A program made the position numbers and the translations under genes. The notes below the pieces were generated by a model. The model made no database searches. It had not been told where the DNA came from and worked only from the letters and a program-made list of their open reading frames with translations. A stretch of DNA of 35,119 bases. Source: a virus. Shown piece by piece: positions 100 to 28,391 of this stretch (position 1 is its first letter; each line of letters begins with the position of its first letter). Where the stretch lies: IMG/VR virus record IMGVR_UViG_3300020518_000004, one strand, 5' to 3'.

Positions 100-250
100 G
101 ACCGATGCGGCCAAATACGCCGACAGCCTGCTGACCTTTGTAAAAGGCACCCGCAAAGACCTGCCCAAAGACACCGACCTCCAGAACATCATTGACGAGA
201 TCGTGGGCGAGATTGCCGCCCTGCTCTACAAGTTGGAGCGATTTAAGTAA
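2..250 (+). CDS. 3' part of the ferritin/Dps-like four-helix-bundle protein (DUF5856-like). The gene starts at 34902 and crosses the circular junction; the full protein is 122 aa.
   Basis: Frame continuity: 34902..35020 plus 1..250 gives 369 nt, or 123 codons. The helical pattern HFLHLQTASYAAHKALGHYYENIVDLADKYAEAY is typical of Dps/ferritin-like phage proteins. The stop TAA overlaps the next ATG (TAATG). Confidence 0.6.
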   Translation, partial: ENIVDLADKYAEAYQGHYGIIPLADYPEGFKVQTDAAKYADSLLTFVKGTRKDLPKDTDLQNIIDEIVGEIAALLYKLERFK

Positions 251-1281
251 TGCCACGGAAGGAGCAGGTCGCAGCCGCCCTCCGTTACCTTGGCGACAAG
301 GCCGACCTAAAACGCCGCTACGAACGCATGGTCAGCCTAGACCAGCCGCAGGACGCCGACGCCATAGACACGGCGCTGGAGATGGGCGGGAGCCTTGTGC
401 CGGGGGTTGGGCAAGCCCTTGCCGCCCGTGATTTTGAACGCGCAAGACGGGCCGACGATGAGGCCGGTATGGCAATGGCGGCGGCTTCTGTTGTGCCGGT
501 CGGTAGGCTAATTGGTGCGCTAAAGGGTTACGACCCGACAGTGCAGAAAATTTTTATCGGCAAGTCTGCAAAGACATGGGATGCCGCCTCTGCCAAACGA
601 GCGGAAGAATTAGAAAAGGCTGGGATAGCGCCGGAGGAAATATGGCGCGAAACAGGAACATTCCGAGCGCCAGATGGCCAACTACGCCAAGAAATTAGTG
701 ATAAGGAAATGCAATTTAAAGACGAGAACAAATTTTTTGCATTGCCAGAAGGAAAATACCGGAGATTGCCAAATGTCGTAACCCACAAAAAATTAACGGA
801 ATCATACCCCGAGGCAAAACGGACAATGGTTTTTAAAGGCGAAGATTACGAAGGTGGTTCGGCATCGCCATTGCCTTTTCCAGAATATATCCATGTTGGT
901 AAAGGTTTGTTAAAAGGCGACACCAAAGATACTTTTGTTCATGAATTGCAGCATTTGGTTCAAAACACGGAAAAATTTGCGCCGGGGTCACACGCTCTGC
1001 CTGATTTGCCGGTGCCTTCAAACATTCAAAAACGATATGACCGATTGGAACAGCAGTGGCAAAAATTGCCGCCCGGTGAGGAAAGGTCAGCGTTAGTTGA
1101 TAAGGCTTTTGCTTTAGTTCGCCCTTTTAGTGGGTATGGGCGATATGCAAGGACAATGGGAGAGGCAGAGGCTCGGGCGGCTGCTGCGCGTCGGACGCTC
1201 TCTGAAAAACAGAGACGGCAAAAATTTCCGTTGGAATCATATGACGTTCCAATTCACGAATTGTGGGATCAGAGAAAATAA
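250..1281 (+). CDS. Stand-alone zincin-like metallopeptidase of the type found in phage/conjugative polyvalent proteins (MPTase-PolyVal-like)
   Basis: HExxH motif in FVHELQHLVQNTEKFAPGS. Upstream element WRETGTFRAPDGQLRQEISD. Downstream element YARTMGEAEARAAAARR. This is the conserved layout I recall for the polyvalent-protein metallopeptidase domain. TAATG coupling to the upstream gene. Confidence 0.55.
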   Translation: MPRKEQVAAALRYLGDKADLKRRYERMVSLDQPQDADAIDTALEMGGSLVPGVGQALAARDFERARRADDEAGMAMAAASVVPVGRLIGALKGYDPTVQKIFIGKSAKTWDAASAKRAEELEKAGIAPEEIWRETGTFRAPDGQLRQEISDKEMQFKDENKFFALPEGKYRRLPNVVTHKKLTESYPEAKRTMVFKGEDYEGGSASPLPFPEYIHVGKGLLKGDTKDTFVHELQHLVQNTEKFAPGSHALPDLPVPSNIQKRYDRLEQQWQKLPPGEERSALVDKAFALVRPFSGYGRYARTMGEAEARAAAARRTLSEKQRRQKFPLESYDVPIHELWDQRK

Positions 1282-1391: not shown

Positions 1392-1667
1392 ATGGCAAAG
1401 GGTAAAAAAACAGGCGGTAGGCAGGCAGGCACCCCTAATCGGGCCACACAGGCTGCTAGGGAGGCGATAGCCGCTTTTGTAGACGGCAACGCAGACCGTC
1501 TCCAAGGGTGGCTAGATCAGATCGCAGAGGAGAAGGGGCCACAGGCCGCCTTTGATGCTTTCAGCACATTGCTGGAGTACCACGTTCCCAAACTCGCCCG
1601 CCAAGAGATCACAGGACAAGACAACGGCCCGGTCAAGGTACAGATCGGATGGATGGCTCCCGAATAA
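1392..1667 (+). CDS. Putative terminase small subunit
   Basis: 91 aa, lying immediately upstream of and overlapping TerL. Basic N-terminus MAKGKKTGGRQAGTPNRAT, typical of small phage DNA-recognition/TerS proteins. Confidence 0.5.
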   Translation: MAKGKKTGGRQAGTPNRATQAAREAIAAFVDGNADRLQGWLDQIAEEKGPQAAFDAFSTLLEYHVPKLARQEITGQDNGPVKVQIGWMAPE

Positions 1668-2989
1668 TCCTGCCCTATCGCCCACGCAAAGCGTTCCTGC
1701 CCTTTCACAACAGGACGCACCGCTGGGCGTGCCTTGTCGCACATAGACGCGCAGGCAAGACGGTCGCCGCTGTCAACGACATGATCCGTGCCGCTATCAC
1801 TTACCAAGGCCCATATGGTTTATTTGGATACGTTGCGCCATATCGGTCGCAGGCCAAAGCCGTGGCATGGCAATACTTCAAAGAGTTTGCCCAACCCATC
1901 ATCAGCAGCGTCAATGAGCAAGAACTGACGATAACGCTCATTAACAACAGCCAAATACGCCTTTACGGAGCCGAAACCGCAGACGCAATGCGCGGGCTGG
2001 GGTTCTCGGGGGTCTACATGGACGAATTCGGTGACTTTAAGCCCAGCGCATTTGGCAACGTCATACGCCCTGCCCTATCAGACAAGCAAGGTTGGGCTGT
2101 GTTTGGCGGTACACCGAAAGGCAAAAACCAATTCTGGGAAATCTACGAAACCGCACAGCGCATCCCAAATGAATGGTTCCTGTTGCGCCTCCCCGCCTCC
2201 ACCAGTGGGCTATTGCCGCAGAGCGAACTAGCGGCAGCCAAGGCGCAGTTGGCCGAGGATCAGTACCTACAGGAGTACGAATGCTCATTTGAAGCAGCCA
2301 TCCTCGGCGCTTTTTACGGCACAGAAATGCGTCAAGCGCAGGATCAAGGCCGTATTACACGCGTGCCGTATGACCCGAACTTGCCGACTTACACGGCGTT
2401 TGACTTAGGCTACCGCGACGACACGGCGGTATGGTTTTACCAGCCCTCACGCGGAGAAATACGCGTCATTGACTACTTTGCCATTTCGGGCGCTGACATC
2501 CACGACATTGCCGAACACGTAGAAAGCAAGCCTTACAAGTACGTCAAACACTTCCTGCCGCACGACGCACGGGCCAAGAGCCTACAGACAGGCCGCAGCA
2601 TCATTGAGCAATTAGCCGCGTATCTCGGCACCGCCAACCTTGCTGTTGTTCCCGACATCGGCGTGCAAAACGGCATTCAAGCCGTGCGCATGACGTTGCC
2701 GCGAGTGTGGTTTGACGGCGAGAAATGCCGCGATGGCATAGAGGCATTACGGCAGTATCAACGCGAGTACGACGAGGACAAGAAGGCGTTTCGGCAGTCC
2801 CCGCGTCACGATTGGACTAGCCACCCTAGTGACGCATTCCGTATGCTTGCGGTATCATGGCAGGAGATTTCTGACAAGCCCCCATCGGTAGAGGTAAAAC
2901 CGCTGCTGGTTGGGCCTGAAAACAAGGTCACGCTAAACGATATGTGGGCCGTTCACGACCGCACGGTTAGCAGGAGAGCAAGGATATGA
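1649..2989 (+). CDS. terL: Terminase large subunit
   Basis: Walker A HRRAGKT and Walker B VYMDEFG. C-terminal RNaseH-like nuclease motifs FDLGYRDDTAVWF and FLPHDA. 446 aa, followed by the portal module. Confidence 0.9.
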   Translation: MDGSRIILPYRPRKAFLPFHNRTHRWACLVAHRRAGKTVAAVNDMIRAAITYQGPYGLFGYVAPYRSQAKAVAWQYFKEFAQPIISSVNEQELTITLINNSQIRLYGAETADAMRGLGFSGVYMDEFGDFKPSAFGNVIRPALSDKQGWAVFGGTPKGKNQFWEIYETAQRIPNEWFLLRLPASTSGLLPQSELAAAKAQLAEDQYLQEYECSFEAAILGAFYGTEMRQAQDQGRITRVPYDPNLPTYTAFDLGYRDDTAVWFYQPSRGEIRVIDYFAISGADIHDIAEHVESKPYKYVKHFLPHDARAKSLQTGRSIIEQLAAYLGTANLAVVPDIGVQNGIQAVRMTLPRVWFDGEKCRDGIEALRQYQREYDEDKKAFRQSPRHDWTSHPSDAFRMLAVSWQEISDKPPSVEVKPLLVGPENKVTLNDMWAVHDRTVSRRARI

Positions 2990-3437: not shown

Positions 3438-3727
3438 CGGCAGCGTGGCAACGATCCGAAGGCAAAAACCCGAAAGGCGGTTTGAACGCCAAGGGTCGCG
3501 CCTCGTACAAAGCCGAGACGGGCGGGACGCTGAAGCCTCCCGTCAAATCGGGCGACAACCCACGCCGCGCATCGTTCCTCGCCCGCATGGGCAATATGCC
3601 GGGGCCGATGGAAAAGAATGGTGAACCGACGCGCCTTGCACTTGCTCTGAGAGCATGGGGCGCTGGTAGTAAGGCAGAGGCCAAATCAAAGGCCAAAGCC
3701 ATTAGCAAACGAAACGAGGGCAAGTAA
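3434..3727 (+). CDS. Small basic protein, DUF6321-like
   Basis: 97 aa. Motifs GKNPKGGLNAKGRASY, NPRRASFLARM and ALRAW match my memory of the DUF6321 family found near phage portal genes. Translationally coupled on both sides. Confidence 0.5.
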   Translation: MTAAWQRSEGKNPKGGLNAKGRASYKAETGGTLKPPVKSGDNPRRASFLARMGNMPGPMEKNGEPTRLALALRAWGAGSKAEAKSKAKAISKRNEGK

Positions 3728-5742
3728 TGGACGGACTGTTACAGCCAAAACTTGACCGCTATCTGCGCATCATCGGGCAGTACGACAACGAGTTTGCCAA
3801 GTGGATGGCGCGTACGAAGAAGATCATCAAGCGTTACCGCGACGATACGCGTGGGCAGACGCTGACCGAATCGGCCAAGTTTAATATCCTTTGGTCAAAC
3901 GTGCAGACCTTAAAGCCTGCCGTCTACGCCAAACTGCCGAAAGCCGACATTAGCCGCCGCTTTGGTGACAACGACCCCGTGGGCCGCGTGGCCGCACAGT
4001 TGGTTGAGCGTGCCATTGACTTTGAAATTGAGCATTACCCCGATTACCGCTCCACGATGGCGTATGCCGTAGAGGATCGGTTCCTCGGTGGACGCGGCAC
4101 CGCATGGGTGCGTTATGAACCGCACACTGCGCCGATTGGGTTAGAGGACGACGGCGTATCTATCACGCCTGACATTGAGCAGGGTGAAGGCGCACCGCCC
4201 AACCTTGAGCGTATTGAGTACGAATGCGCACCCGTGGATTACGTCCATTGGCGCGACTTTGGGCACTCTCCCGCCCGCACATGGGAAGAAGTCGGGCAGG
4301 TGTGGCGCTGGGTGTTTATGACCCGTGAGGCGCTGGTAGAGCGTTTTGGTGAGGACGTCGCACGCCGCATACCGCTAGACAGTGGCCCCGAGCCGCTCAA
4401 CGCCTACAACGAGAACAAGCGTCTCTACAACCGCGCAAAGATTTGTGAACTGTGGGACAAGGAGACTGAGAAGGTTTACTGGTTCAGCAAGGGAATGCCC
4501 GAGATCATTGACGAGCGTGATGACCCGCTCGGCCTTGAGGGCTTCTTCCCTTGCCCAAAACCGCTGTATGCGACGACGACCAGCGACACGCTCGTACCTG
4601 TCCCCGACTTTGTGCTGTACCAAGATCAGGCGATGGAGTTGGACATCCTGTCCGACCGCATTGATGGTTTGGTCAAAGCACTGCGCGTGCGTGGCGTCTA
4701 CGACTCCAGCCAACCCGCGCTGCAACGACTGATGACGGAGGGCGATAACAATGCTCTTATCCCGGTTGATAAATGGATGGCATTTAGTGAAAAGGGCGGT
4801 CTTAAAGGTAGTATTGACCTCCTCCCCCTTGACACACTCGCAAATGCGCTACTCCAGTGCTACCGCGCTAGAGAAGACATCAAGAGCCAAATCTACGAAA
4901 TCACGGGCATCTCGGACATCATCCGAGGTACGTCGTTCGCCAGCGAAACGGCCACCGCGCAGCAAATCAAAGGGCAATACGCAGGGCTAAGACTGCGTTC
5001 TATGCAAGAGGACGTTGCCCTCTTTGCCTCGGAACTGATACGCCTCAAGTCACAGGTCATGTGCATGAAGTATCAGCCCGAGACGATCCTTGCGTACGCT
5101 GCCGCACAGCAGATGACGCCCGCTGACCAGCAACTGATTCCGCAGGCGTTGGAACTGCTGCGTAACAAGCCGCTGCGTAACTTCCGCGTGGACATTGCCG
5201 CCGACAGCCTTGTGATGCTGGACGAAAACCAGAACAAGCAAGACCGTATGCAGTTCCTGCAAGCATTCGGTGGTTTCCTTGCCCAAGCGTTGCCGGTCGG
5301 TCAGGCCAGCCCGCAGATGGTGCCGATGATGATGGAACTGCTGCGCTTTGGTATGCAGGCGTTTAAGGCAGCCCGTCCGATTGAGGGCCAGATTGACGCG
5401 ACGCTCCAGCAACTTGCGCAGGCCGCCCAACAGCGGCCTCCAGAGGAGCAGGGCAAGCAAGCGGAGTTGCAAGCCAAGGGCCAATTGGAATCGTCCAAGA
5501 TGCAAATGCAGTCGGCGCTAAAGCAAGCCGAAATGCAGCACGCCATGCAAATGGAGCAGATGAAGAACCAAGCCAAGATGGCGATGGAACAGCAAAAGAT
5601 GAACTTTGAAGCGCAACTGAAGGCTGCCGAACTACAGAGCCAACAGGCTGCTGCCAAGTACAAGGCCGACGTTGACGCCCAGACCAAACTGATTATCGCC
5701 CAGATGGGCAAGACGATGCCTGAGCCGCCTTTTACGCAATGA
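3727..5742 (+). CDS. Portal protein with a C-terminal Gln/Met-rich coiled-coil (barrel-like) extension
   Basis: 671 aa, downstream of terL. N-terminal pattern KFNILWSNVQTLKPAVYAKLPKADISRRFGDNDPVGRVAAQLVERA is typical of podovirus portals. The C-terminal ~100 aa is heptad-like and Q/M/A/K-rich, as in the P22 portal barrel. Confidence 0.8.
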   Translation: MDGLLQPKLDRYLRIIGQYDNEFAKWMARTKKIIKRYRDDTRGQTLTESAKFNILWSNVQTLKPAVYAKLPKADISRRFGDNDPVGRVAAQLVERAIDFEIEHYPDYRSTMAYAVEDRFLGGRGTAWVRYEPHTAPIGLEDDGVSITPDIEQGEGAPPNLERIEYECAPVDYVHWRDFGHSPARTWEEVGQVWRWVFMTREALVERFGEDVARRIPLDSGPEPLNAYNENKRLYNRAKICELWDKETEKVYWFSKGMPEIIDERDDPLGLEGFFPCPKPLYATTTSDTLVPVPDFVLYQDQAMELDILSDRIDGLVKALRVRGVYDSSQPALQRLMTEGDNNALIPVDKWMAFSEKGGLKGSIDLLPLDTLANALLQCYRAREDIKSQIYEITGISDIIRGTSFASETATAQQIKGQYAGLRLRSMQEDVALFASELIRLKSQVMCMKYQPETILAYAAAQQMTPADQQLIPQALELLRNKPLRNFRVDIAADSLVMLDENQNKQDRMQFLQAFGGFLAQALPVGQASPQMVPMMMELLRFGMQAFKAARPIEGQIDATLQQLAQAAQQRPPEEQGKQAELQAKGQLESSKMQMQSALKQAEMQHAMQMEQMKNQAKMAMEQQKMNFEAQLKAAELQSQQAAAKYKADVDAQTKLIIAQMGKTMPEPPFTQ

Positions 5743-6086
5743 AACGGACGTACGTTTACATAGACGGCGAGTTTGTGGAGCGCAAAAAGGACGAGAAGGG
5801 GCGCTACCACTACGTCATGCCTGACATCACGCCCTACCGGAGCATGATTGACGGCAAGATGGTGACATCACGCTCGGAGCATCGCCGTCATTTAAAGGCT
5901 AACAATTGCGAGGAGGTAGGTAACGACGACCCTGCCAAGCACATTCGGCGTGAACCCGAGAATAACACTCGGCTGGAACGCATTAAGCACATGGTCAACA
6001 CACGTATGACCAACGAACAGGCTGATCGCATACTGCGCGAAATACGCCAACAAGCCAATTTCACCAATCCCCACAGGAGAGGGTAA
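5739..6086 (+). CDS. Hypothetical protein (conserved small head-module protein)
   Basis: 115 aa, ATGA/TAATG coupled between portal and scaffold. Confidence 0.55.
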   Translation: MKRTYVYIDGEFVERKKDEKGRYHYVMPDITPYRSMIDGKMVTSRSEHRRHLKANNCEEVGNDDPAKHIRREPENNTRLERIKHMVNTRMTNEQADRILREIRQQANFTNPHRRG

Positions 6087-7117
6087 TGGACAACACTAAT
6101 CCAGCAATGGTTGCGGCACGGGAAGATCAAGAGATTGACCGTCGTGAGTTGTTAGAAGCAGGGTTTGAGGCCGCCGAGAAGGGCGAACCCGTAGAAACCG
6201 TCGTACGCGATGCGGCAGGGCGGTTCAGCAAGCAAGAAGCGGCACCACAACAACCGGAACCCGAAAATACGGAAGAAAAGTCGTCGTTTAACACACTGTA
6301 CGACAACGATCCGGTGTGGAAACGCCCGCCCGCCTCATGGCGTCGTGAATATCACGAAATTTGGCAGAAAGCCGACCCAAAATTGCAGGAATACGCGTGG
6401 AAGCGTGAAGAAGAAATGCGCAAGGGTGTGGAAAACATTTTTGGCAAGGCTGAATTTGCGGATTCCATGCAAGCGGCCATTGAGCCGTATATGCAAACCA
6501 TCCAAGGGTTAGGCATTACGCCCGACAAGGCCGTGTCTGCGTTGATGCAGGCCGACCATATGCTGCGGAATAGCGACCCGCAGACGAAAATGCAGTATTT
6601 CACGCAGTTGGCGCAGTCGTATGGCATCAATTTGGGTTCCATGACGCAGCAGCCGGGTCAGCAAGCGCAACGCGCTGTTGATCCGCTCGTTTACCAACTG
6701 CAAAATGAACTCAACAAGGTACGTGGTGAGGTCATGGGCTGGAAACAGCAGCAGGAAATGGCCGAAAACCAGAACTTGTTGACCGAAATTAACAGTTTTA
6801 GTCAAAAGGTTGAGTATTTTGAGGAAGCACGCCCGGTGATGATCCAACTCCTACAGGGTGGACTCGCCGAGACGTTGCAAGACGCGTATGAAAAAGCCAT
6901 ACGCCTCACCCCCAATTTGTTTGACCAAGTGACCAAGGCCCGACAGGCCGAGGAAGCGGCTAAACAGGCCAAAGAGGCCAACCGGGCGGCGAAAGTTGCC
7001 CGTGCAGCAGCGGTGAGTGTCAGAAGCGCCACACCCGGCGTAAACACGGCTCCCAAGGCAGCAAACCGTCGCGCACTTCTTGAAGAAGCATTGACCGAAC
7101 AAGAAGCGCGTTTGTAA
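6086..7117 (+). CDS. Putative scaffolding protein
   Basis: 343 aa, acidic and helical/coiled-coil. Lies between portal and major capsid. AGGAGAGGG ribosome-binding site. Confidence 0.6.
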   Translation: MDNTNPAMVAAREDQEIDRRELLEAGFEAAEKGEPVETVVRDAAGRFSKQEAAPQQPEPENTEEKSSFNTLYDNDPVWKRPPASWRREYHEIWQKADPKLQEYAWKREEEMRKGVENIFGKAEFADSMQAAIEPYMQTIQGLGITPDKAVSALMQADHMLRNSDPQTKMQYFTQLAQSYGINLGSMTQQPGQQAQRAVDPLVYQLQNELNKVRGEVMGWKQQQEMAENQNLLTEINSFSQKVEYFEEARPVMIQLLQGGLAETLQDAYEKAIRLTPNLFDQVTKARQAEEAAKQAKEANRAAKVARAAAVSVRSATPGVNTAPKAANRRALLEEALTEQEARL

Positions 7118-7140
7118 TTAACTGAACTAGGAGACATCAA

Positions 7141-8166
7141 ATGGCATTTGCCAACTCTAGTATCAGCGACATCATTGCTACCACGATTCAGAGCCGTAGC
7201 GGTGAACTTGCTGATAACGTGACGAACAACAACGCGTTGCTTCGTCGTCTGAAGGAGCGTGGGAACGTCAAGACGTTCTCGGGCGGTAACGTGATTTTGC
7301 AAGAAATCATGTACACCGATCCGACCACGAACAACACCAACTCGTACAGCGGCTATGAAGTGCTGAACGTGGGCCAGAACTCGCCGATTTCTGCGGCGCA
7401 GTTCAGCATCACGCAGTACGCCTCGGCTGTGACCATTTCGGGTCTGGAGATGATCCAGAACTCGGGCAAGGAGGCCATCATTGACCTTCTTGACGGTCGC
7501 ATGGAAGTCGCGGAAGCCCAACTTGCTAACCGCATCTCGGGCGACCTGTACGGCGACGGCACCGGAAACGCCGGCAAGAACCTCACGGGCCTTGCTGCGG
7601 CTGTGCCGGATGACCCGACTGTTGGCACCTACGGCGGCATCAACCGCGCTGTGTGGTCGTTCTGGCAGAGCAAGAAGTTCTCGGCTGCCGCTGATGGCGG
7701 TGGTGCGGGCGCTGTGTCCAGCACGACGATTCAAGGCTACATGGATGCGCTTGCCGTGCAACTCGTTCGTGGAACCGACAAGCCTGACCTCATCGTGGCC
7801 GACAACAACTACTACCGCTTCTACCTGCAATCGCTGCAAGCGATCCAGCGTATTACGGAGAGTGGTTCGGGCCTCGCCGGAGCGGGCTTTGCCTCGTTGA
7901 AGTATTATGGCGCTGGTATGGCCTCCGACGTTGTGTTGGACGGTGGTATCGGATCGTCCACGTACAACAGCGGTTCGGGCAACGCAAACCATATGTGGTT
8001 CCTCAACACCAAGTACCTGATGTTCCGCCCGCACAAAGATCGCAACTTTGTGCCGATTGGCGGTGAGCGTCAGGCCGTCAACCAAGACGCCATTGTGAAA
8101 CTGATTGGCTGGGCCGGTAACCTCACCTGCTCGGGCAGCCAGTTCCAAGGCGTGTTGATTGCTTAA
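7141..8166 (+). CDS. Major capsid protein
   Basis: 341 aa with a strong AGGAGA ribosome-binding site. Position after the scaffold. N-terminal pattern SDIIATTIQSRSGELADNVTNNNALLRRLKERG is typical of podovirus coat proteins. Confidence 0.75.
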   Translation: MAFANSSISDIIATTIQSRSGELADNVTNNNALLRRLKERGNVKTFSGGNVILQEIMYTDPTTNNTNSYSGYEVLNVGQNSPISAAQFSITQYASAVTISGLEMIQNSGKEAIIDLLDGRMEVAEAQLANRISGDLYGDGTGNAGKNLTGLAAAVPDDPTVGTYGGINRAVWSFWQSKKFSAAADGGGAGAVSSTTIQGYMDALAVQLVRGTDKPDLIVADNNYYRFYLQSLQAIQRITESGSGLAGAGFASLKYYGAGMASDVVLDGGIGSSTYNSGSGNANHMWFLNTKYLMFRPHKDRNFVPIGGERQAVNQDAIVKLIGWAGNLTCSGSQFQGVLIA

Positions 8167-8179
8167 GGAGTAAACGAAA

Positions 8180-8662
8180 ATGACTGTTTCAACTAGTAAT
8201 GTCATTGGCGTTGCCCTTGGCTATGCCGACACCACGCAGCAGTTCAACCTCGGCACCTGCGTCAACCTTGACGACGGTGGACAGGCGATTTACGTGCAGG
8301 CGGCCTCTACCGTCTCGCAGTACGCCGCCGTGTCTGTCCGTGCCGACAACAAGGCTGTGCCGGTGACGACGACCAACGCTGCCGACTCCAAGCGGTTTGC
8401 GGTCGCGCAAGTCTCTATTGCCTCTGGCTCCTTTGGCTGGGTGCAATCGGGTGGCGTGATGCGCGTCAACCTTGCGGCGTCCTGCAACCCGGCTGTCCCG
8501 CTCTTTACGACGGCGACGGCTGGCGTTCTGGATGACGCCACGGTGTCGGGTGGCGGTGTCGGCCTTGTGGCCGGTATCGTTGCCACGGCAACCGCGTCGG
8601 GTGCCACGGCGATTACCTGCGTTGCGGGCTTCCCGCACGTTGTTGGGTACTCGGGCGCCTAA
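8180..8662 (+). CDS. Putative head decoration protein (DUF2190-like)
   Basis: 160 aa, Ala/Val/Gly/Thr-rich, directly after the capsid gene. The pattern FAVAQVSIASGSFGWVQSGGVMRVNLAA resembles DUF2190 decoration-like proteins. Confidence 0.45.
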   Translation: MTVSTSNVIGVALGYADTTQQFNLGTCVNLDDGGQAIYVQAASTVSQYAAVSVRADNKAVPVTTTNAADSKRFAVAQVSIASGSFGWVQSGGVMRVNLAASCNPAVPLFTTATAGVLDDATVSGGGVGLVAGIVATATASGATAITCVAGFPHVVGYSGA

Positions 8663-9438
8663 TGAAACCTCTGGAGATCACGGTACAAGCGGCGGGAACG
8701 CCTGAAGAACTATGTTCTAACATACGTTCTGCCCTTGCCCGTGGTCTACCAGAACTGACCCTCGCTCCCATCACGCACGATGCAACCATGGTGCTGGTGG
8801 CGAGCGGGTGGTCTATGCCCGACTACATTAACGACATCAAAGCGCACCGGAAGGCCGGTCATGTGATCGGTGCAATTAAGGGTGCGCATGACTTTTTGGT
8901 AGAGAACGGCGTAGAACCAGATTTTTGGGTCAACCTTGACCCCCGCGACCGCACCAACGGTATCAAGCACAAGAACGACCGCACGCTGTACCTTGTTGCC
9001 TCGCGCTGCCCGCCCTCCACGTTTGATTACCTTCAAGGTAAGCGCGTGATGGTGTGGCACTCATGGGCTGAAGGCCCAGAAATGGACGCCATGGGGCCGG
9101 GTAAATTGGCCATCGGTGGCGGCACGACCTCGGGTCTGCGTGCCATCAACATCGGCTATATCATGGGCTTCCGTAAGTTTTTCCTGTACGGCTACGACTC
9201 GTGCAACAGCCCGGATGGACGTAAGCGGTTTACGGGCGAGTTGCCGGGGCTAACGGTAGACGTATGGGTGGGCGGCGCAGACGGCAAGAAATTTAACTGC
9301 AACGCCGCGATGGCCCAGCAGGCCAACGAATTCCAGAAATTGTTTGAGGTGATGCCCGACCTGCAAATAGAGGTCATCGGGCCGGGGCTGATTGCTGAAA
9401 TCATGCGTTGCCGCCGCAACATGGCGAAGGCGGCCTAA
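8662..9438 (+). CDS. DUF115 (MptE/Maf-like) domain protein, putative glycosyltransferase
   Basis: LVASGWS (equivalent of the GxGPS turn), GVEPDFWVNLDP, and GGGTTSGLRAINIGYIMGFRKFFLYGYDSC match the DUF115 core. TAATG coupling on both sides within the head module. Confidence 0.6.
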   Translation: MKPLEITVQAAGTPEELCSNIRSALARGLPELTLAPITHDATMVLVASGWSMPDYINDIKAHRKAGHVIGAIKGAHDFLVENGVEPDFWVNLDPRDRTNGIKHKNDRTLYLVASRCPPSTFDYLQGKRVMVWHSWAEGPEMDAMGPGKLAIGGGTTSGLRAINIGYIMGFRKFFLYGYDSCNSPDGRKRFTGELPGLTVDVWVGGADGKKFNCNAAMAQQANEFQKLFEVMPDLQIEVIGPGLIAEIMRCRRNMAKAA

Positions 9439-10265
9439 TGGCAATCCCGTCACGCGTACTCGGCAGCGGCATCAACCAATTGTCCACCGTCAGTATTTGC
9501 GGCGATGGTATTGCATCGGTCACGGCAGCCGGTACGTCGACAGGCGATGCCACCACGTTGACGTATGTGTACAACAACGTCACAAGCGCAGCCGTTGGGA
9601 CAGGCGTAAAGTTGCCACCGACGGAGATGGGCGAAACCATCATTGTCAAGAATACGACGGCAAACCCAATTTCCGTTTATCCGTATAACGCCAGCAGCAG
9701 CATCAACAACGCAGGGTTTGGCACGATCAACCCCGATTGCTCGGCATTGTTTTTTGCCGTTAGCAATACGTTGTGGGAGGAACTGCAAGGCTTTGGCCGC
9801 GCTGTGCCGATTCTGCATTTTGGTGCGTTTAGCGACACAACGCTGCAAACGGCGGCTTCCATTGACACCGCCTACGGCATGGTTTTTAACACGACCGACA
9901 GCAGCAATGGCGTATCTATCGGGTCGCCGTCGTCCCGTTTGGTTGTGGATTATCAAGGCGTCTACAACGTGCAGTTTTCAGCACAGTTGGACAAAACCTC
10001 GGGCGGCGTGGGCAACATTTATATCTGGTTGCGTAAAAACGGCACCAACGTCGCCAACACAGCCACTACCGTCGCCATTCAAGGAAGCGCAGCGCGTACC
10101 GTCGCCGCGTGGAACTTCATCATTCAACTAGAACCAACAAACTACGTTGAATTGATGTGGGCGACGGATGACACAAGCGTTAGAATTCTTGCGGCCAGCG
10201 CCACAAGCGTATGGCCCGCCATTCCATCAGTCATTTGTACCGTAACACAGGTCAACAACCTGTAA
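9438..10265 (+). CDS. Ser/Thr-rich virion fibre/decoration protein with a C1q/TNF-like C-terminal jelly-roll domain
   Basis: Start taken at the ATG of the TAATG at 9438. The C-terminal half shows the C1q-like pattern: HFGAFSDT...MVFNTTDSSNGV...YQGVYNVQFSAQL...IYIWLRKNGTNV...WNFIIQLEPTNYVELMW. Confidence 0.55.
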   Translation: MAIPSRVLGSGINQLSTVSICGDGIASVTAAGTSTGDATTLTYVYNNVTSAAVGTGVKLPPTEMGETIIVKNTTANPISVYPYNASSSINNAGFGTINPDCSALFFAVSNTLWEELQGFGRAVPILHFGAFSDTTLQTAASIDTAYGMVFNTTDSSNGVSIGSPSSRLVVDYQGVYNVQFSAQLDKTSGGVGNIYIWLRKNGTNVANTATTVAIQGSAARTVAAWNFIIQLEPTNYVELMWATDDTSVRILAASATSVWPAIPSVICTVTQVNNL

Positions 10266-10287
10266 AAATCCCCACAGGAGAACGGAA

Positions 10288-10830
10288 ATGCTAGACAGTG
10301 ACATTAACAACGCCGACGCCCAACTTCACGTTGAGTTTTATGCACGCGAGGATGGCCCGAACAAGGGCAACGTCTATTGCCGCATCCAAGCCCCCGGCGA
10401 CAAGACCAACGTGATTGACCAGCCGTTGCGTGACGACCATAAGGCGCGTTTCCCGCGTCAGTGGTTGTATTTCCAGATGCAGCAGAGCGAAGGTGCCGCC
10501 TCGCAGATCGGCACGCCGCTGACGCAATGGCAGTCGGACGCACCGGATGACATCAACCGCGACCAGATCGGTGAACTGTCTATCCTCAAGTTTGTCACGG
10601 TGGAGCAGTTAGCCCTTGCCTCGGACGCCCAATTGCAGCGCGTCGGCATGGGTGGCATTGGATTGCGCGAGAAAGCGCGTATGTACTTAAATCGCAAGAA
10701 CCGCGTGGACGCCAACGCAGAGTTGGATGCGACCAAGCAGCAACTTGCAGAACTTCAAGCACAGATGGCCGAACTCATTGCGTCACAAAAGCGCCGTGGT
10801 CGGCCACCTAAAGAATTAACGGAGGGATAG
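10288..10830 (+). CDS. Hypothetical virion-module protein with a C-terminal coiled coil and a basic KRRGRPPK tail
   Basis: 180-aa ORF with an AGGAGA ribosome-binding site. Confidence 0.55.
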   Translation: MLDSDINNADAQLHVEFYAREDGPNKGNVYCRIQAPGDKTNVIDQPLRDDHKARFPRQWLYFQMQQSEGAASQIGTPLTQWQSDAPDDINRDQIGELSILKFVTVEQLALASDAQLQRVGMGGIGLREKARMYLNRKNRVDANAELDATKQQLAELQAQMAELIASQKRRGRPPKELTEG

Positions 10831-10831
10831 T

Positions 10832-11746
10832 ATGGGCAGCACGATGGTGCAATTGGTGCAGCAATGCACAAACGAACTCGGTATCCCGACGCCCTCCACC
10901 GTCGCTGGCAATTCCAGCCAAGACGTTATCCAACTTTTGGCGTTGATGAATGCGTGTGGATACGAATTGCTCCGTCGTGCTGATTGGCGCGAATTAACGC
11001 GTCAGCATACGTTTTACACGGAAGCCATCACGACAACGGGAACGTGGTCAACGTCCTCGTACACGATCACCGGCATCCCCAGCACGACATCGCTCAACAC
11101 GACGTATCAGGTGCAGGGCGTCGGCATCCCAAACGCCACCTATGTCACGGCGGTCACAGGATCGTCTACGGTCACGATCAACTACCAGCCAACGGAAGCA
11201 CAAGTTGACGGGCAACTGATTTTCCAAAAGGTTAAATACAGCCTGCCGTCGGACTACTACAGCACGGTCAATCGCACGCATTGGGACAAGTCTAAGCGGT
11301 GGGAAATGCTCGGCCCCGAGTCACCGCAGCAGTGGGAATGGTTGCTGTCGGGTTATATCAGCACCGGCCCCCGTATCCGGTGGCGCTTGCTCGGCCAATA
11401 CTTCCAGATTTGGCCGGGAATGAACGGTGGGGAGTTGCTCGGCTTTGAGTACCGCAGTAACGCGTGGGCCTATAACGCGTTAGGCGTAGCCAAGACCAGT
11501 TTTACCGCCGACACCGATACGTGCGTCTACCCAGACCGCGTGATGGTGCTAGGCACCAAACTTAAATACTTTGAAGCCAAGGGCTTTGACACGACCGCCC
11601 TCTACCGCGATTACCTCGCCGAACTTGAAACAGCAATGGCGCAGGATATGGCAGCGGCCAACCTGTCGTTTGCCCCGCGACCGGGTACGGTGTTGATCGG
11701 TTACGACAACATCCCCGACTCGGGCTACGGGACGGATAGCCAATAA
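10832..11746 (+). CDS. Putative head-tail adaptor / tail structural protein
   Basis: 304 aa. Called from its position between the head genes and the larger tail gene. No diagnostic motif. Confidence 0.35.
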   Translation: MGSTMVQLVQQCTNELGIPTPSTVAGNSSQDVIQLLALMNACGYELLRRADWRELTRQHTFYTEAITTTGTWSTSSYTITGIPSTTSLNTTYQVQGVGIPNATYVTAVTGSSTVTINYQPTEAQVDGQLIFQKVKYSLPSDYYSTVNRTHWDKSKRWEMLGPESPQQWEWLLSGYISTGPRIRWRLLGQYFQIWPGMNGGELLGFEYRSNAWAYNALGVAKTSFTADTDTCVYPDRVMVLGTKLKYFEAKGFDTTALYRDYLAELETAMAQDMAAANLSFAPRPGTVLIGYDNIPDSGYGTDSQ

Positions 11747-13311
11747 TGGCCTCGCCGGTTCGCAGACGGCTTGTTCAGCGCACGACGGCCAACGTGGCGT
11801 CGTTGCCCGCCCCTGTCGGCGGCTGGAACGCACGCGATGCGCTGGCAAACATGGCCCCAACGGACGCTGTGTACTTGGAAAATATGTTTCCAAGCGTATC
11901 CAACGTCAATTTGCGAGGTGGTTACACGAAGCACAAGACGGGGCTGCCGGGAACTGTTGATACGCTGATGACGTACAACGCAGGCAGCACGATCAAACTG
12001 TTTGCGATCAGCGACGGCAAGATTTTTGACGTAACGTCGGCAGGTAGCGCCGGGTCAGCGTTGGTTGCGAGTCTCTCCAACTCTGCATGGGAGTACACCA
12101 ACGTCACCACGGGCGGCGGTAGTTATTTGTATGCCGCGAACGGTGTGGACAAGCCGTTGCTCTACAACGGCACGACTTGGACACCAATTGACGGCACAAG
12201 TTCGCCTGCCATCACAGGCGTTACCACAACGAGCCTTGAAAGCCCCACGCTTTTCAAGAATCGGATGTGGTTTATTGAGAAAAACACGCTTAAAGCGTGG
12301 TATTTGCCGGTTGCATCAGTAGGTGGTGCAGCCAACGTGCTAGACCTCTCAAGCGTTATGCACCTCGGCGGCAAACTGACCGCGATGGCTACATGGACGA
12401 TTGACGCAGGCTACGGCGTTGACGATAACCTTGTTTTGGTGAGCGATAAGGGCGAGGTTGCGGTATATCGCGGCACTGACCCGACCAGCGCATCCACTTG
12501 GGCATTGATCGGCGTGTGGATCATCGGTTCGCCGATTTCGCGCCGTTGCGTGACAAAATACGGCGGTGATTTGCTCATTTTGACGCTGGACGGGCTAATT
12601 CCGTTCGCCTCGGCGCTACAGTCGTCGCGGTTAGACCCCAACATCGCGCTGTCCGACAAGATACAGGGTGCTTTTGCTGCTGCCGCACGCACCTACAAGG
12701 ACACCTTTGGGTGGGCGTTGCTTTATAACCCGCTCAACAACGCGCTGATCGTCAATGTTCCCGTCAGCACCGGCCAGCAGCAGTTTGTGATGAACAACAT
12801 CACCAAGGCGTGGTGCAACTTTACTGGGTGGAATGCGTCGTCGTGGGCGTTGGTCGGCAATGAACCGTACTTTGGCGGCAACACCTACGTTGCAAAGGCG
12901 TGGACAACGGGTGACGGTGGCTATGCCGATGACGGTGAGCCGATCCCGACCAAGGCGCTGCAAGCATTTAACTACTTTGAGACGCGTGGCGTCATCAAAT
13001 ACTTTACCCGCGCACGACCGAGCATCTTTAGCAACGGGCAGCCTGCCATTGTTATCGGTATCAACACCGACTTTCAGACGGTTGACCAGACGGGTGCGTT
13101 GTCGTTTTCGCCAACAACCGCAGGATTGTGGAATGTTGGTTTATGGGATGTTGCGCTATGGGGTTCTGATGTCGTCATCACGAACAACCAATCTGGCGTG
13201 ACAGGACTCGGTTACTCGGGAGCCATTTCGTTCACGAGTAGCAGTAAGAATTTGCAGATTCAATGGGCATCAACAGACGTTGTGTATCAAATCGGATGGG
13301 CTGGAATATAG
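11746..13311 (+). CDS. Putative tail (nozzle/tubular-type) structural protein
   Basis: 521 aa, TAATG coupled, beta-rich composition. Called from position in a podovirus-like tail module. Confidence 0.35.
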   Translation: MASPVRRRLVQRTTANVASLPAPVGGWNARDALANMAPTDAVYLENMFPSVSNVNLRGGYTKHKTGLPGTVDTLMTYNAGSTIKLFAISDGKIFDVTSAGSAGSALVASLSNSAWEYTNVTTGGGSYLYAANGVDKPLLYNGTTWTPIDGTSSPAITGVTTTSLESPTLFKNRMWFIEKNTLKAWYLPVASVGGAANVLDLSSVMHLGGKLTAMATWTIDAGYGVDDNLVLVSDKGEVAVYRGTDPTSASTWALIGVWIIGSPISRRCVTKYGGDLLILTLDGLIPFASALQSSRLDPNIALSDKIQGAFAAAARTYKDTFGWALLYNPLNNALIVNVPVSTGQQQFVMNNITKAWCNFTGWNASSWALVGNEPYFGGNTYVAKAWTTGDGGYADDGEPIPTKALQAFNYFETRGVIKYFTRARPSIFSNGQPAIVIGINTDFQTVDQTGALSFSPTTAGLWNVGLWDVALWGSDVVITNNQSGVTGLGYSGAISFTSSSKNLQIQWASTDVVYQIGWAGI

Positions 13312-13739
13312 TCAGCGGGCCGGAAATCGGCCATTGGGTAACGGCGCAAACCGACGGGTCATTTTGGCCCGAGCGGGCAACGGCCATCGGACTTAAAAAG
13401 GACGGTCAGATTGTCGCCGGTACGGTTTACGAGATGTGGAACGGCAAATCGGTCGTTTGCCACATTGCTTGGAACCGCGTAACCCCTGCCTACGTCGCCG
13501 CCGTCTACGATTATGCGTACAACGTCTGCGGAGTTGATAAGATAATAGGGCCAATCAGCAGTAACCATACCCGGGCGCTGAAACTGGTCACAAAAATGGG
13601 GTTTTCGGAGGAGGCGCGGATCAAACAGGCCGCGCACGACGCCGGGGACATCGTATTTATGACTCAGACACCTGAAAAGTGTCGTTATTTGGAGCCTCGG
13701 TATGGGCAAAAGATCACCAGCACCGCCGCCAACACCTGA
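13296..13739 (+). CDS. GNAT-family N-acetyltransferase embedded in the tail/internal-protein module
   Basis: Core IVAGTVYEMWNGKSVVCHIAW...NHTRALKLVTKMGFSEEARI resembles the GNAT beta4-alpha3 and alpha4 region. The start is uncertain (ATG at 13296 or 13263). It overlaps both neighbouring genes. Confidence 0.55.
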   Translation: MGWNIVSGPEIGHWVTAQTDGSFWPERATAIGLKKDGQIVAGTVYEMWNGKSVVCHIAWNRVTPAYVAAVYDYAYNVCGVDKIIGPISSNHTRALKLVTKMGFSEEARIKQAAHDAGDIVFMTQTPEKCRYLEPRYGQKITSTAANT

Positions 13740-16700
13740 TTACGCCGCCATTGCGCGGCAGCAAGGTCAGGAGAACATAGAAGCCGCTCGTCAGTCGGCT
13801 TATATGTCCAATCCCAACGTCTACACGCCTACGGCGCAGCAGACGGTAACGTGGCAGCGCACGCCGCAAATCAATCAGGCTGCGTATGACCAAGCAATGG
13901 CTGATTATCAAGCCAACGTGCTGCGTGATCCTGATATGGCGTCAGGAGCAGCACCTGATATTGCGCAATTCACGACTTACGTTGAGCAACCGACCATCCG
14001 ACAGGAGTTGGTTGGCCCTGCCAAAGACATTTTTGGCACGCAGCAGCAAGCCGAACAGGCGATGGCAAATTTGGGACTGCGTGAAATCGGCGACCTGTCG
14101 TCGTTTCTTAACCAAAACTTTGCCGCCCAACTTCCTGCCATCCAGACCCAACTTGGTCAGTACGGACAGGTCGCAGGCGCACCCAACCTTGCTGGTTACG
14201 GCACGGCTGGCGCACCCGGTGCGGGGGAATTTGGCGCGGTATCAGGCGCACCTAGCGCGGCGCAGTATGGCCCTCGCTCAACCTTTACTGCCGAAACCAT
14301 GCCGGGAATGTATGCACCTGTTGGGCAGGCGCAACAAGGCATCGGCGCGTTTGGTGACGTTGCGCAGGCTCCCGACCTTACTGGCATGGGTCAGGCGGGC
14401 GGTAATGTCGCACTGACAGGTTTTACAGGCGGCCCCTCGGGCGGCCAGTTTGGTATGGCAGGCGGTGGGCCAGCCGCGTACAACCTCGGTCAACTTGACC
14501 TCTCAGGCGTCGGCGGTGTCGGCGGTGGCCCCGCTATGGGTCAGTACGGCATGGCACAAGCCGGCCCCGGCGGCGTGCAGTTTGGTGGCCTAGACCTTTC
14601 GGGGCTTGGCACCGCACAAGGATTTGGCAATCTCGGTCAGTACGCCGCAGGCGCTGGCCCCAATGCCCCGAATGTCCAAGGAGCCGACTTCTCACGCGTT
14701 GGGCAGATTGGCCCCGGCGTTGGCTACGGTCAGTTTGGAATGGCCGGTGGCGGCCCTGCTGCGGGCCTGTACGGCATGGCCGGTGCTGGCCCAGCGGGCG
14801 TGCAGTTTGGCGGCCTTAACCTTGCAGGAATGCAAGGCGTACAAGGCGGCGTTGGGCAGTTTGGTCAAGCACAAGGCGGCCCCGCAGGGTTGAATCTTGG
14901 CGGGTTTGATACCTCACGCCTCGGTGAAATCGCAGGTGGCCCGTCAGCCGATCAGTTTGGTCGTGCCATCGGTGGCCCTGCCGCACCGTCACTAGAAGAA
15001 AACCTTAACCTTTCAGGCGTCGGCGATGTTGCCCGCAACGTGCAAGAGGGCCGATTTGGCTACGCACGCGGTGAGTTAGCAACACCAGAACTTCAACGGC
15101 AGTTGGCAACGCAAGGGCTTGCCGCCATGCCAGTCAACGCGGGAATGACGGCGCAAAACGCCATCATGTCGCGCCTTGAGCCGCAATTGCAGCGTGAACG
15201 TGCGCAGTTGGAGCAGCGCCTTGTCAACCAAGGCTTGCGACCGGGCGGTGAGGCGTACAACGCAGAGATGGAACTGCAAGCGCAACGTGAAAACGATTTG
15301 CGCACGCAAGCGGCATTGCAAGGCATCAGCCTAGACGCCTCCATGCGTCAGCAGGGACTTGCCGAACAACAGACCCTTGCCGACTTTGCCAACCAAGCCG
15401 CACTCGCGCAGTTTGGAGCAGGCGCACAAGGCTTGGGACTCTACAACGAAGCCCTCGCGCAAAACTTCCAGCAGTCGCTTGCCGCACAGTCTGCGCAGAA
15501 CATGGCGCAACAGCAGGCATTCCAGCAGCGCCTACAGGCGGGTCAGTTTGGCCGTGAAGCGCAGATGGCGTCCTTTGGTATGGGCCAACAGGCACAACAA
15601 GCGGTCAACCAAGCGCAACAGCAGAACTTTGAGCGTGCGTTGGCTGCCCAACAAGCGCAAAACGCCGCACAAGCACAAGGTTTTGGGCAAGAAATGGCCG
15701 CGCAGCAGTTTGGCCGTGAGGGTGCGCTGGCAGGATTTGAGACGCAACAAACAGCACAGCAAGCGCAGAACGCAGCAATTGCGCAAAACACGCAATTGGC
15801 GTTGCAGTCAGGTCAGTTTGCAAACCAAGCGCAGGCACAAGACTTTGCACAACGTCTCGCCGCTGGAGAGTTTGGACAAGAAGCACAATTGGCTTCTTTC
15901 CAGACGGGTCAAGCGGCACAAGAGGCGATCAACCGCGCCATTGCTCAGAACTTTGCACAAGGTCAAGCCTCACAGCAGTTGCAAAACCAAGCGGTGCAGC
16001 AAAACTTGCAGGGTGCATTGGCGACCGAGGAAGCCCAACGTGCCGCGCAAGCGCAACAGTTTGGTCAAGCCGCGACCCAAGCAGAACTTGGCGCACAATT
16101 GACCGGCCAGCAGTTTGCGATGGGTCAACAGGCGCAGCAGGCTGCAAACCAAGCACAAGCGCAAAACTATCAGCAAGCCCTTGCGGCTGCGCAGATGGGC
16201 AACGCCGCACAACAACAGAATTTCTTGCAACGTGTGGCCGCAGGCGAGTTTGGCCGAGAGGCACAACTTGCGACGTTCCAAACGGGACAGCAGGCGACAC
16301 AAGCGCAGAACCAAGCCGCCCAGCAAAACTACCAGCAAGCGTTGGCGTTGCAGCAGATGCAAAACCAAGCGCAACAGCAGCGTTATGGTCAAGCGGTTGG
16401 CGCAGGAGAGTTTAACCGTCAGGCGTTACTTGCACAGTTTGGCATGGGGCAACAAGCCCAGCAGGCACAAAATCAAGCCATGGCGCAGAACTTTGCGCAG
16501 GCTCAAGCCGCTGCGCAGATGCAGAACCAAGCAGCGCAAGGTGCGTTTGGCCAGCAAGTCACGGCACAGGAACTGCGCAATCAAGCCTTGGGTCAAAACC
16601 AACAGGCCGCGTTGCAGCAGCAACAAGCCGCCATGCAAGCCCAGCAGCAGCGTTACGCGCAGCAGATGGGCCTTGGACAGTTTGCGAACCAAGCCGTTGC

Positions 16701-26783: not shown

Positions 26784-26857
26784 TGGCTGAAGGGGCTGGG
26801 ATTGAACCAACATTCACGGAGTCAAAGTCCGTTGTCCTACCATTAGACGACCCTTCA
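26784..26857 (-). tRNA. tRNA-Gln, anticodon UUG, with encoded CCA
   Basis: Hand-folded 74-nt cloverleaf: acceptor TGAAGGG/CCCTTCA; D arm GTCT-AATGGTA-GGAC; anticodon arm ACGGA-CTTTGAC-TCCGT; variable loop GAAT; T arm GTTGG-TTCAATC-CCAGC; discriminator G; CCA. The U1-A72 pair and G73 are the bacterial tRNA-Gln hallmarks. Confidence 0.9.
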
Positions 26858-27994: not shown

Positions 27995-28391
27995 ACACCG
28001 GCTCCGGTATCACAATGCCCATATCCGCGCACCGCGACTCTAAAAACAATAAGTAATCGCTAAACTCTTGCTTGGTCAGCGCCGAGGATCGTTTAAGCGG
28101 CCGCATACGCTTACGCCCAAACCCCTCCAGCGTTTCCCAGCCGAAACATTCACCAAGGAAGTATTCGTGCAGGTCATCGCGTGTCCATCCCGCTAACGCC
28201 TCACCGCCGCCCTCCAAGATCGCGGGGTAACACACACCCCACAGAAATGCGTTTTGCTGCTGCGTGCGGGGCTTTTTCCATTCCACAATCTCTATGCACC
28301 ACGCTCGGTCAGCCGACAACCCCTGCACCATGCGTGCGGCTGCTGTCGCTAACTGCTCGGGCGTCGTGCCTTTAGGAAATATGCGCTTCAC
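27981..28391 (-). CDS. ninB: NinB/Orf-family recombination mediator
   Basis: KKPRTQQQNAFLWGVCY motif (RS..QN..lW core of lambda NinB). 136 aa. GTG start in a GTGA overlap. Confidence 0.65.
   Translation of the reverse strand: MKRIFPKGTTPEQLATAAARMVQGLSADRAWCIEIVEWKKPRTQQQNAFLWGVCYPAILEGGGEALAGWTRDDLHEYFLGECFGWETLEGFGRKRMRPLKRSSALTKQEFSDYLLFLESRCADMGIVIPEPVYESA

Follow-up and report, generated by a model that had tools for sequence, protein, structure and literature searches.

The DNA window analysed here, the whole 35,119-nucleotide (nt) stretch of IMG/VR virus record IMGVR_UViG_3300020518_000004, contains a gene at 8662-9438 that encodes a 258-amino-acid (aa) enzyme of the PF01973 (MptE-like/DUF115) family and is located among the head genes of a phage. 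The product of this open reading frame (ORF) is interpreted as a minimal soluble PF01973 glycosyltransferase that would glycosylate a virion protein late in infection with a host sugar, the most likely acceptor being the 160-aa protein encoded immediately upstream. The chances for and against this interpretation are considered about equal. The first 99 nt of the window are identical to the last 99 nt (1-99 and 35021-35119); the window is therefore a complete phage genome, circularly closed or terminally redundant, with a unit length of 35,020 bp.

The assignment to DUF115 made in the original prediction was confirmed. The enzyme matches PF01973 with 56.8 bits (E = 3.2e-15) over residues 38-183 (profile positions 23-169 of 171), which clears the curated gathering cut-off of 34.6 bits, and its fold is closest to that of a Maf glycosyltransferase. 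An AlphaFold model built with 82 homologues (predicted local distance difference test (pLDDT) 94.2, predicted template-modelling (TM) score 0.91) is a compact globular alpha/beta domain without a long hydrophobic helix, and its Rossmann-like fold is common to the solved PF01973 members 5MU5 and 8SD5. The top Foldseek match in the Protein Data Bank (PDB) is Maf of Magnetospirillum magneticum (5MU5; E = 9.7e-10, TM on query 0.66), followed by the M. jannaschii MptE pyrophosphokinase MjHPPK (8SD5; about 2e-7, TM on query 0.53-0.57), with SteA also near. GT29 sialyltransferases (E about 2e-3, TM about 0.4) and thiamine pyrophosphokinases are more distant matches. The family profile ranks the PDB sequences alike (5mu5, 3.9e-12; 8sd5, 8e-7). 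No match to the enzyme was found in PHROGs, in NCBIfam, in a single-sequence search of the PDB or by tblastn in 50,697 GenBank phage records, and the group has no known member in culture.

When aligned with 5mu5 by HMMER, the phage enzyme has D93 and D179 at the places of Maf residues E324 and D415, respectively. The family shows no exception to D179, and nearly all its members have D or E at position 93. Both E324 and D415 are reported to be essential in Maf, and the equivalent residues were shown to be so in two other Mafs (bioRxiv 10.1101/2020.06.03.131540). The GGGTTSG loop of the enzyme aligns with the DSGPT of Maf, the correspondence to the published serine being uncertain. Relatives of 30-80% identity show little or no variation in this loop, in the nucleotide-binding glycine loop or at D77, D/E93, R160 and D179. 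The conserved acidic residues are also kept in the kinase; they point to an intact active site but do not specify its chemistry. The DLDGD and HAHGDN segments of MjHPPK are presumably functional motifs of pyrophosphokinases. At the positions of SDLDGD and HAHGDN the phage enzyme reads LDPRDR and (L)VASRCPP, with the family consensus DPRxx and ASxCxP, and is Maf-like there. An extra C-terminal beta-hairpin and helix (residues about 198-253) in the phage family also aligns better with Maf.

The comparison with Maf drawn in the original prediction is thus upheld for the fold and the catalytic core, but the enzyme is not itself a Maf. The likeness to the Mafs of M. magneticum, C. botulinum and G. 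kaustophilus comprises the same PF01973 domain, which gives the best structure and profile match, and the retention of the essential acidic residues. In both cases the enzyme would be cytoplasmic and act on Ser/Thr of a surface-assembly protein, with its gene beside the presumed substrate gene, although on the phage side this is presumed. Mafs are about 600-670 aa long, whereas the phage enzyme is a single domain with a short C-terminal subdomain. Only residues about 261-429 of 5MU5 (of 632-666 aa) align, at about 16% identity in the structural alignment, and the N-terminal domain, the C-terminal helical/TPR acceptor-binding domain and a GlfM-like factor are all missing from the phage enzyme. 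Its gene belongs to a phage head module with no flagellin or Pse/Leg/Neu genes nearby, and none was found among the scanned ORFs of the complete genome. The enzyme is predicted to be a Maf- or sialyltransferase-like glycosyltransferase with a Maf-like catalytic core, and not a Maf in the defined sense.

The TAATG overlaps reported on both sides of the gene are found in the sequence just as described. At the upstream junction (T8660-A-A-T-G8664) the TAA stop of the 160-aa gene overlaps the ATG at 8662 by one base, and at the downstream junction (T9436-A-A-T-G9440) the TAA of the enzyme gene overlaps the ATG at 9438 in the same way. A mechanical ORF list places the start of the downstream gene at TTG 9408; ATG 9438 is taken as the real start because all relatives begin MAIPSRVLGSG. 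Stop/start overlaps of one nt are commonplace among the late genes of phages and by themselves mean little. The downstream overlap is retained in relatives, whereas at the upstream junction a few bases often separate the two genes. The enzyme gene has a dN/dS of 0.07-0.135, comparable with that of structural genes; the sequence comparison thus indicates strong purifying selection and a retained function.

Relatives of the enzyme were found in 298 viral contigs at close range and in at least 556 in a broader scan. The first search of the family gave 515 clusters at 90% identity, and 2,029 clusters at 50% identity were obtained with E<=1e-3. The family is almost entirely metagenomic, and many of the contigs are genome-sized (33-40 kb). 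The source labels of the proteins include 'hypothetical protein', 'uncharacterized Rossmann fold enzyme' and 'MptE-like' or 'MptE-like pyrophosphokinase'. Gene neighbourhoods were compared in 80 loci of the genome's own clade and 80 loci of a sister clade (enzymes about 45-50% identical), among which 64 and 74, respectively, have enough upstream sequence to be informative. The order capsid, 160-aa homologue, enzyme was found in all 138 informative loci (64/64 and 74/74), and the capsid gene lies 5' of the 160-aa/enzyme pair in every locus with enough sequence to reach it. The gene order does not vary within the own clade and runs capsid, 160-aa, enzyme, 275-aa, 180-aa, adaptor, 521-aa. In the sister clade, the 160-aa homologue ends less than 400 nt 5' of the enzyme gene in 74/74 loci, and genes encoding a ~260-aa putative glycosyltransferase (GT) and a ~165-aa SAM methyltransferase lie directly 3' in 52/52 of the loci with 3 kb of downstream sequence. 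The dominant order there is capsid, 160-aa, enzyme, putative GT, methyltransferase, 180-aa homologue, adaptor and 521-aa homologue. Most other clades likewise have genes for a second putative GT and a methyltransferase after that of the enzyme, and a GT8-like gene often adjoins the cassette in sister clades. In other lineages the same block is enlarged by genes for a GT8-like protein, for an HNH endonuclease or for an NDP-sugar-type C-methyltransferase, or by one more unknown gene.

The ~260-aa putative GT has weak matches to Glyco_trans_1_2 (3.3e-5, in a fused relative), Glyco_trans_1_4 (0.084) and DGD2 (E about 1). Several relatives of 520-600 aa consist of the enzyme fused to this ~260-aa domain, which is encoded by a separate downstream gene in other phages. 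Among 20 long relatives scanned, Methyltransf_24 was found in five, and others contain GT1-like, Glyco_transf_7C or polysaccharide pyruvyl-transferase domains. A distant relative of 769 aa (P0245) combines the enzyme domain with a methyltransferase and a CTP-dependent riboflavin kinase, a cofactor-type fusion unlike the glycan-type others. The idea that the enzyme modifies virion proteins, advanced in the original prediction, is favoured by its placement, by the glycan enzymes of sister clades and by purifying selection, whereas the glycan itself we infer.

The 160-aa protein is the invariable genomic partner of the enzyme and its most likely glycan acceptor. The capsid protein is a possible alternative. 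The only family match of the 160-aa protein is phrog_29386 (head and packaging); the E-value is 1.7e-5 for the protein of this genome, and 12 of 13 family members match, the best at 2.8e-11. This match to a virion structural family makes its earlier description as decoration-like plausible. The protein is rich in Ala, Thr, Ser and Gly (S+T 19%), and T26, S43, T63, T64, T111 and T113 are Thr or Ser positions invariant across clades. No match was found with its family profile among PDB sequences or by tblastn of the protein among the phage records. A related locus (L083) and this genome are 57% identical in the 160-aa protein, 52% in the enzyme, 36% in the capsid and 32% in the portal. In the own clade, divergence of the enzyme correlates with that of the 160-aa protein (Spearman rho 0.71, n=64), compared with a rho of 0.03 (n=66) for the adjacent downstream gene, which recombines separately from that of the enzyme.

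The 275-aa downstream protein had been described as a Ser/Thr-rich C1q-like fibre. The Ser/Thr content (S+T 22%) bears out the first term, and part of its family is C1q-like; no collagen-like or other fibre repeats were found in the protein, so that it is a putative fibre. The protein consists of two domains, a conserved N-terminal one of ~120 aa (about 9438-9800) and a BclA_C/C1q-like C-terminal one (about 9813-10262) that is exchangeable. PF18573 BclA_C (C1q-like fold) matches 8 of 17 members of the family, the best at 5.6e-5; the genome's own protein has no match to it at E<=1, and the family profile has none among PDB sequences. Homologues of residues ~126-272 in GenBank phages have been labelled 'complement C1q-like protein 3 roll fold' and 'cerebellin-1 domain' by their depositors. 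In a locus with a 94% identical enzyme (L004, 10777-11139), the downstream gene encodes only the 120-aa N-terminal domain, without the C1q-like half, and several other loci match only the N-terminal third, as if the C-terminal heads had been swapped. The C1q-like half has the look of a distal domain that can be swapped. Only the own clade has the downstream protein; it is absent from the 80 sister-clade loci, where the putative GT and the methyltransferase are found instead. With this limited distribution, its uncorrelated divergence and the loss of the C1q half in L004, the downstream protein did not hold up as the partner of the enzyme, although it is a possible second acceptor.

Other glycan-type genes are present in the genome. 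The gene at 28388-29050 encodes a GT8-like protein of the GT-A type with the DxD motif FMDCD, located in a leftward early operon beside genes for a YqaJ exonuclease and a Sak annealing protein. The product is 36-47% identical (E down to 2e-57) to proteins encoded beside or near the enzyme in related loci (L082, L083/84, L086, L087 and L093-95). PF01501 was found in 4 of 4 members of this family, the best at 3.9e-6, with only 0.061 for the genome's own member, and the family profile matches the GT8 domain of WbbM (6U4B) at 1.4e-4. Judging by this homology, the GT8-like protein probably belongs to the same glycosylation toolkit as a second enzyme, with its gene lying outside the head module, and the phage is predicted to encode at least two transferases. 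A methyltransferase encoded at 32844-33581 belongs to the same Pfam family as domains fused to PF01973 relatives, but has no significant pairwise similarity to these fused domains. A role as a glycan O-methyltransferase is possible, the link to the enzyme being weak. A VRR-NUC nuclease gene (33578-33901, plus strand) follows the methyltransferase gene.

The scan of ORFs in the complete genome revealed none for the biosynthesis of a sugar nucleotide, and the donor must therefore be a host metabolite. A nonulosonic-acid donor, as used by the Maf proteins named in the original prediction, is a guess and finds no sugar-nucleotide pathway to rest on among the scanned ORFs of this complete 35-kb genome.

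In the proposed mechanism, the enzyme would be transcribed and translated with the late head genes and would O-glycosylate a virion protein on Ser/Thr, acting in the cytoplasm while heads assemble or earlier. The likeliest acceptor would be the 160-aa protein, with the capsid and the downstream C1q-like protein as secondary candidates. The donor would be supplied by the host and, by analogy with Maf, may be a CMP-activated ulosonic acid, either Kdo or a nonulosonic acid. Kdo is present in most Gram-negative cells. The glycan may be lengthened or trimmed by the GT8-like enzyme, perhaps together with the TylF-like methyltransferase, a task that in sister clades would fall to the clustered enzymes.

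Several points weigh against this interpretation. The fold and both acidic residues are common to the MptE pyrophosphokinase, so that structure alone is no proof of a transferase. The donor, acceptor, linkage and activity are all predictions. The enzyme is without the Maf domains and the GlfM-like factor that confer acceptor specificity. One related locus (L082) carries the whole enzyme cassette beside replication genes (helicase, VRR-NUC-like), and no 160-aa homologue was found in the 18 kb available there; with the early-operon GT8-like gene, this locus indicates that the enzymes are not obligatorily tied to head genes. Divergence of the enzyme also correlates with that of the portal (0.68) and the adaptor (0.65) and is weak evidence for pairing; the divergence data therefore argue mainly against the downstream protein as an obligate partner. 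The AlphaFold model of the 160-aa protein (41 homologues) is unusable (pLDDT 40.5), and we therefore infer both its decoration-protein role and its location on the capsid.

A transferase acting on a host envelope glycan (LPS, capsule or S-layer glycan) or on another host protein, for example in superinfection or competitor block or in release, is considered unlikely. The fusion partners and neighbours of the family (GT8, GT1-like, pyruvyl transferase and methyltransferases) are typical of polysaccharide pathways, and both the position of the L082 cassette and that of the GT8-like gene agree with such a role. The enzyme gene of this genome, however, is translationally coupled amid capsid and tail genes, a placement seen in every informative locus and an unusual site for conversion or exclusion genes; a long hydrophobic helix is absent from the compact model, and a late envelope modifier would be of no obvious benefit in a cell near lysis. 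That the product is a pyrophosphokinase of the kind of archaeal MptE or thiamine pyrophosphokinase, with a pterin, a vitamin or another small molecule as substrate, and encoded by an auxiliary metabolic gene, is a poorer prospect still. The Pfam family takes its name from MptE, MjHPPK comes second among the matches in both structure and sequence, thiamine pyrophosphokinases were also matched, and P0245 is fused to a riboflavin kinase domain. The match is nevertheless weaker than that to Maf (8e-7 vs 3.9e-12; TM on query about 0.55 vs 0.66), the two kinase segments are replaced by the Maf-like LDPRDR and ASRC..P, the neighbours and most fusion partners are glycan enzymes, and no pterin or folate genes were found among the scanned ORFs of the complete genome or in the related loci inspected.

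Membership of a DNA hypermodification (base glycosylation) pathway is judged highly improbable. Phage glycosyltransferases often act on DNA (PMC12619734), and the L082 cassette adjoins genes for a helicase and a VRR-NUC-like nuclease, but the head-module position is nearly universal and no gene for a hydroxymethylase, a TET/JBP-like or a thymidylate-synthase-like enzyme was found among the scanned ORFs of the complete genome. To our knowledge, no PF01973 enzyme acts on DNA. Equally slight is the chance that the product is an assembly or structural protein in which the enzyme fold is retained and catalysis is irrelevant; its position among structural genes and its lack of acceptor-binding domains would fit, whereas the (near-)invariance of the glycine loop, D77, D/E93, GGGTTSG, R160 and D179 and a dN/dS of about 0.1 would not. 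Late glycosylation of a virion protein by the PF01973 enzyme is accordingly the preferred reading.

CbMaf is able to transfer Kdo and Neu5Ac to Ser/Thr from host CMP-sugars, and the donor site of Maf is reported to be Cst-II-like (bioRxiv 10.1101/2020.06.03.131540). The likeness of the phage enzyme to GT29/GT42 sialyltransferases (ST3Gal, ST6GalNAc2, Cst-II) is very weak and consists of GT29 structural matches only; these enzymes act on glycan acceptors and not on protein. Archaeal MptE, a 6-hydroxymethyl-7,8-dihydropterin pyrophosphokinase (M. jannaschii 8SD5), resembles the phage enzyme in Pfam family, core fold and size (about 215-240 aa), and a GxGPS loop, an acidic residue after the 'PD' strand and a G-x-D motif are common to both. 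MptE differs in being the weaker match, in its DLDGD and HAHGDN motifs, in the lack of the C-terminal hairpin and helix and in its pterin-pathway context.

Virion glycosylation has been shown in mycobacteriophages (Freeman et al. 2023, as cited in PMC12619734). The two systems would be alike in that phage glycosyltransferases decorate particle proteins, which for the present phages is a prediction from genes. As expected of a phage virion-glycosylation system, the gene of the predicted glycosyltransferase is linked to structural genes in 138/138 informative loci. The mycobacteriophage enzymes are reportedly classical GT-A/GT-B glycosyltransferases of another family, from phages of actinobacterial hosts; their glycans are said to have been demonstrated by mass spectrometry at the C-termini of capsid and tail-tube subunits and reportedly alter antibody recognition. 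The present system differs in that the presumed acceptor is a dedicated small protein. The C-terminal domain of the exosporium glycoprotein BclA (PF18573; C1q/TNF-like trimer) resembles only the downstream protein, in 8/17 members. BclA itself is an O-glycosylated surface filament. The downstream protein lacks its collagen-like repeat region, and the C1q-like domain is optional in this phage group.

In the literature searched, the coverage of which was incomplete, no PF01973/DUF115/MptE-like protein was described in a phage structural or head module and no phage virion glycosylation was found beyond the mycobacteriophage work. Neither the enzyme family nor the concept of virion glycosylation is new in itself. 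What appears to be new is their combination, in which a minimal Maf-like enzyme keeps its place next to a small head protein in many hundreds of contigs from uncultured phages, usually together with other glycan enzymes. If the reading is correct, glycan coats would be common on environmental phages of Gram-negative-type hosts, and an enzyme family formerly tied to flagella would be used on phage particles. The enzyme and its probable substrate would form a compact two-gene system for studying acceptor choice by a minimal Maf-like transferase, and a candidate glyco-engineering tool for attaching Kdo or sialic-acid-like sugars to proteins. For many hundreds of viral proteins, database names including 'MptE-like pyrophosphokinase', 'uncharacterized Rossmann fold enzyme' and 'hypothetical protein' would need correcting.

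A more specific and general proposal is offered only tentatively, and is itself rather unlikely to hold in full. Uncultured environmental podophages of ~33-40 kb (at least 556 contigs) may carry a 'glyco-module' in the head operon, in which a minimal Maf-like enzyme would O-link an acidic ulosonic sugar from the host CMP-sugar pool, either Kdo or one resembling sialic acid, to a capsid-surface protein of ~160 aa, and in most clades further transferases and methyltransferases would elaborate the glycan. With such a module, a phage particle would for the first time be seen to carry a sialylation-like modification, and the Maf family would gain a new, stripped-down mode of acceptor recognition.

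Table 1. Genes of the late module and other genes discussed in the text, with their positions in the window.
Feature	Position	Strand	Evidence or remark
Large terminase	1649-2989	+	
Portal	3727-5742	+	
Probable scaffold	6086-7117	+	
Major capsid protein	7141-8166	+	phrog_9953 major head protein, E=7.9e-106
160-aa head-module protein	8180-8662	+	phrog_29386 'virion structural protein'
PF01973 (MptE-like/DUF115) enzyme, 258 aa	8662-9438	+	Pfam 56.8 bits
275-aa Ser/Thr-rich protein	9438-10265	+	BclA_C/C1q-like in part of family
180-aa protein	between the 9438-10265 gene and the adaptor-like gene	+	
Adaptor-like tail protein	10832-11746	+	more tail, ejection and fibre genes lie beyond it
521-aa protein	11746-13311	+	phrog_5107, 2e-123
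GT8-like glycosyltransferase (predicted)	28388-29050	-	DxD motif, homology to enzyme-linked genes of relatives
Methyltransf_24/TylF-like methyltransferase	32844-33581	+	PF13578 1e-9; TylF 2.4e-6

The layout of the genome is given in Table 1. A scan for promoters and terminators across 5500-14000 gave no signal exceeding the shuffled background, which is consistent with one long late transcript. At the DNA level the capsid gene is similar to those of Mx8, Stenotrophomonas phage BUCT555 and a Bradyrhizobium phage. These proteobacterial and myxobacterial relatives, an M15 peptidase gene that encodes a candidate endolysin, and two 'Pseudomonadales' labels of metagenome-assembled genomes (MAGs) suggest a Gram-negative-type host. 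One label comes from a 10.9-kb all-phage contig binned into a 'Pseudomonadales' MAG and the second MAG label agrees, the binning of phage contigs being weak evidence. Assignment of a host from the kin of the C1q-like domain in Limnohabitans and Acinetobacter phages was set aside, the domain being a mobile module.

The 521-aa protein matches phrog_5107, a family labelled 'amidase' in the lysis category. Its gene sits between the adaptor and tail genes and is kept there in all lineages; this position casts doubt on the label, and a part in the tail or nozzle seems likelier. A GNAT-type acetyltransferase gene (13263-13739, plus strand; phrog_4470, 3e-27) lies in the tail module right after the 521-aa gene, likewise in L085 and L087, and its product could be another virion-protein-modifying enzyme or an ejected protein.

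Insertions were observed at several junctions of the module in relatives. An HNH_3 homing endonuclease gene (1.4e-9) is inserted between the capsid and 160-aa genes of L002 (2797-3264), and an HNH gene is located right 3' of the enzyme gene in L083. Insertions of ~300-520 bp are present at the capsid/160-aa junction in L007, L014-L018, L077 and L078, and at the adaptor/521-aa junction in L012, L067, L074, L079 and L081. In L082, a small gene lies directly 5' of the enzyme cassette, and the VRR-NUC-like assignment there was judged from the sequence alone.

Elsewhere in the genome, a 343-aa protein encoded at the genome start (250-1281, plus strand), 5' of the terminase gene, contains an LPD23 domain ('large polyvalent protein associated domain 23', 7e-12). 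The gene for a 1201-aa virion protein contains an in-frame direct repeat of 84 nt (14520-14828), the two diverged copies of which are 225 nt apart, and the 969-aa tail-fibre gene contains diverged in-frame direct repeats (21807-22273) with 32-nt cores at 60-135-nt spacing. A tRNA-Gln gene (anticodon TTG; 26784-26857, minus strand) is located between a metallophosphoesterase-like gene and the leftward operon.

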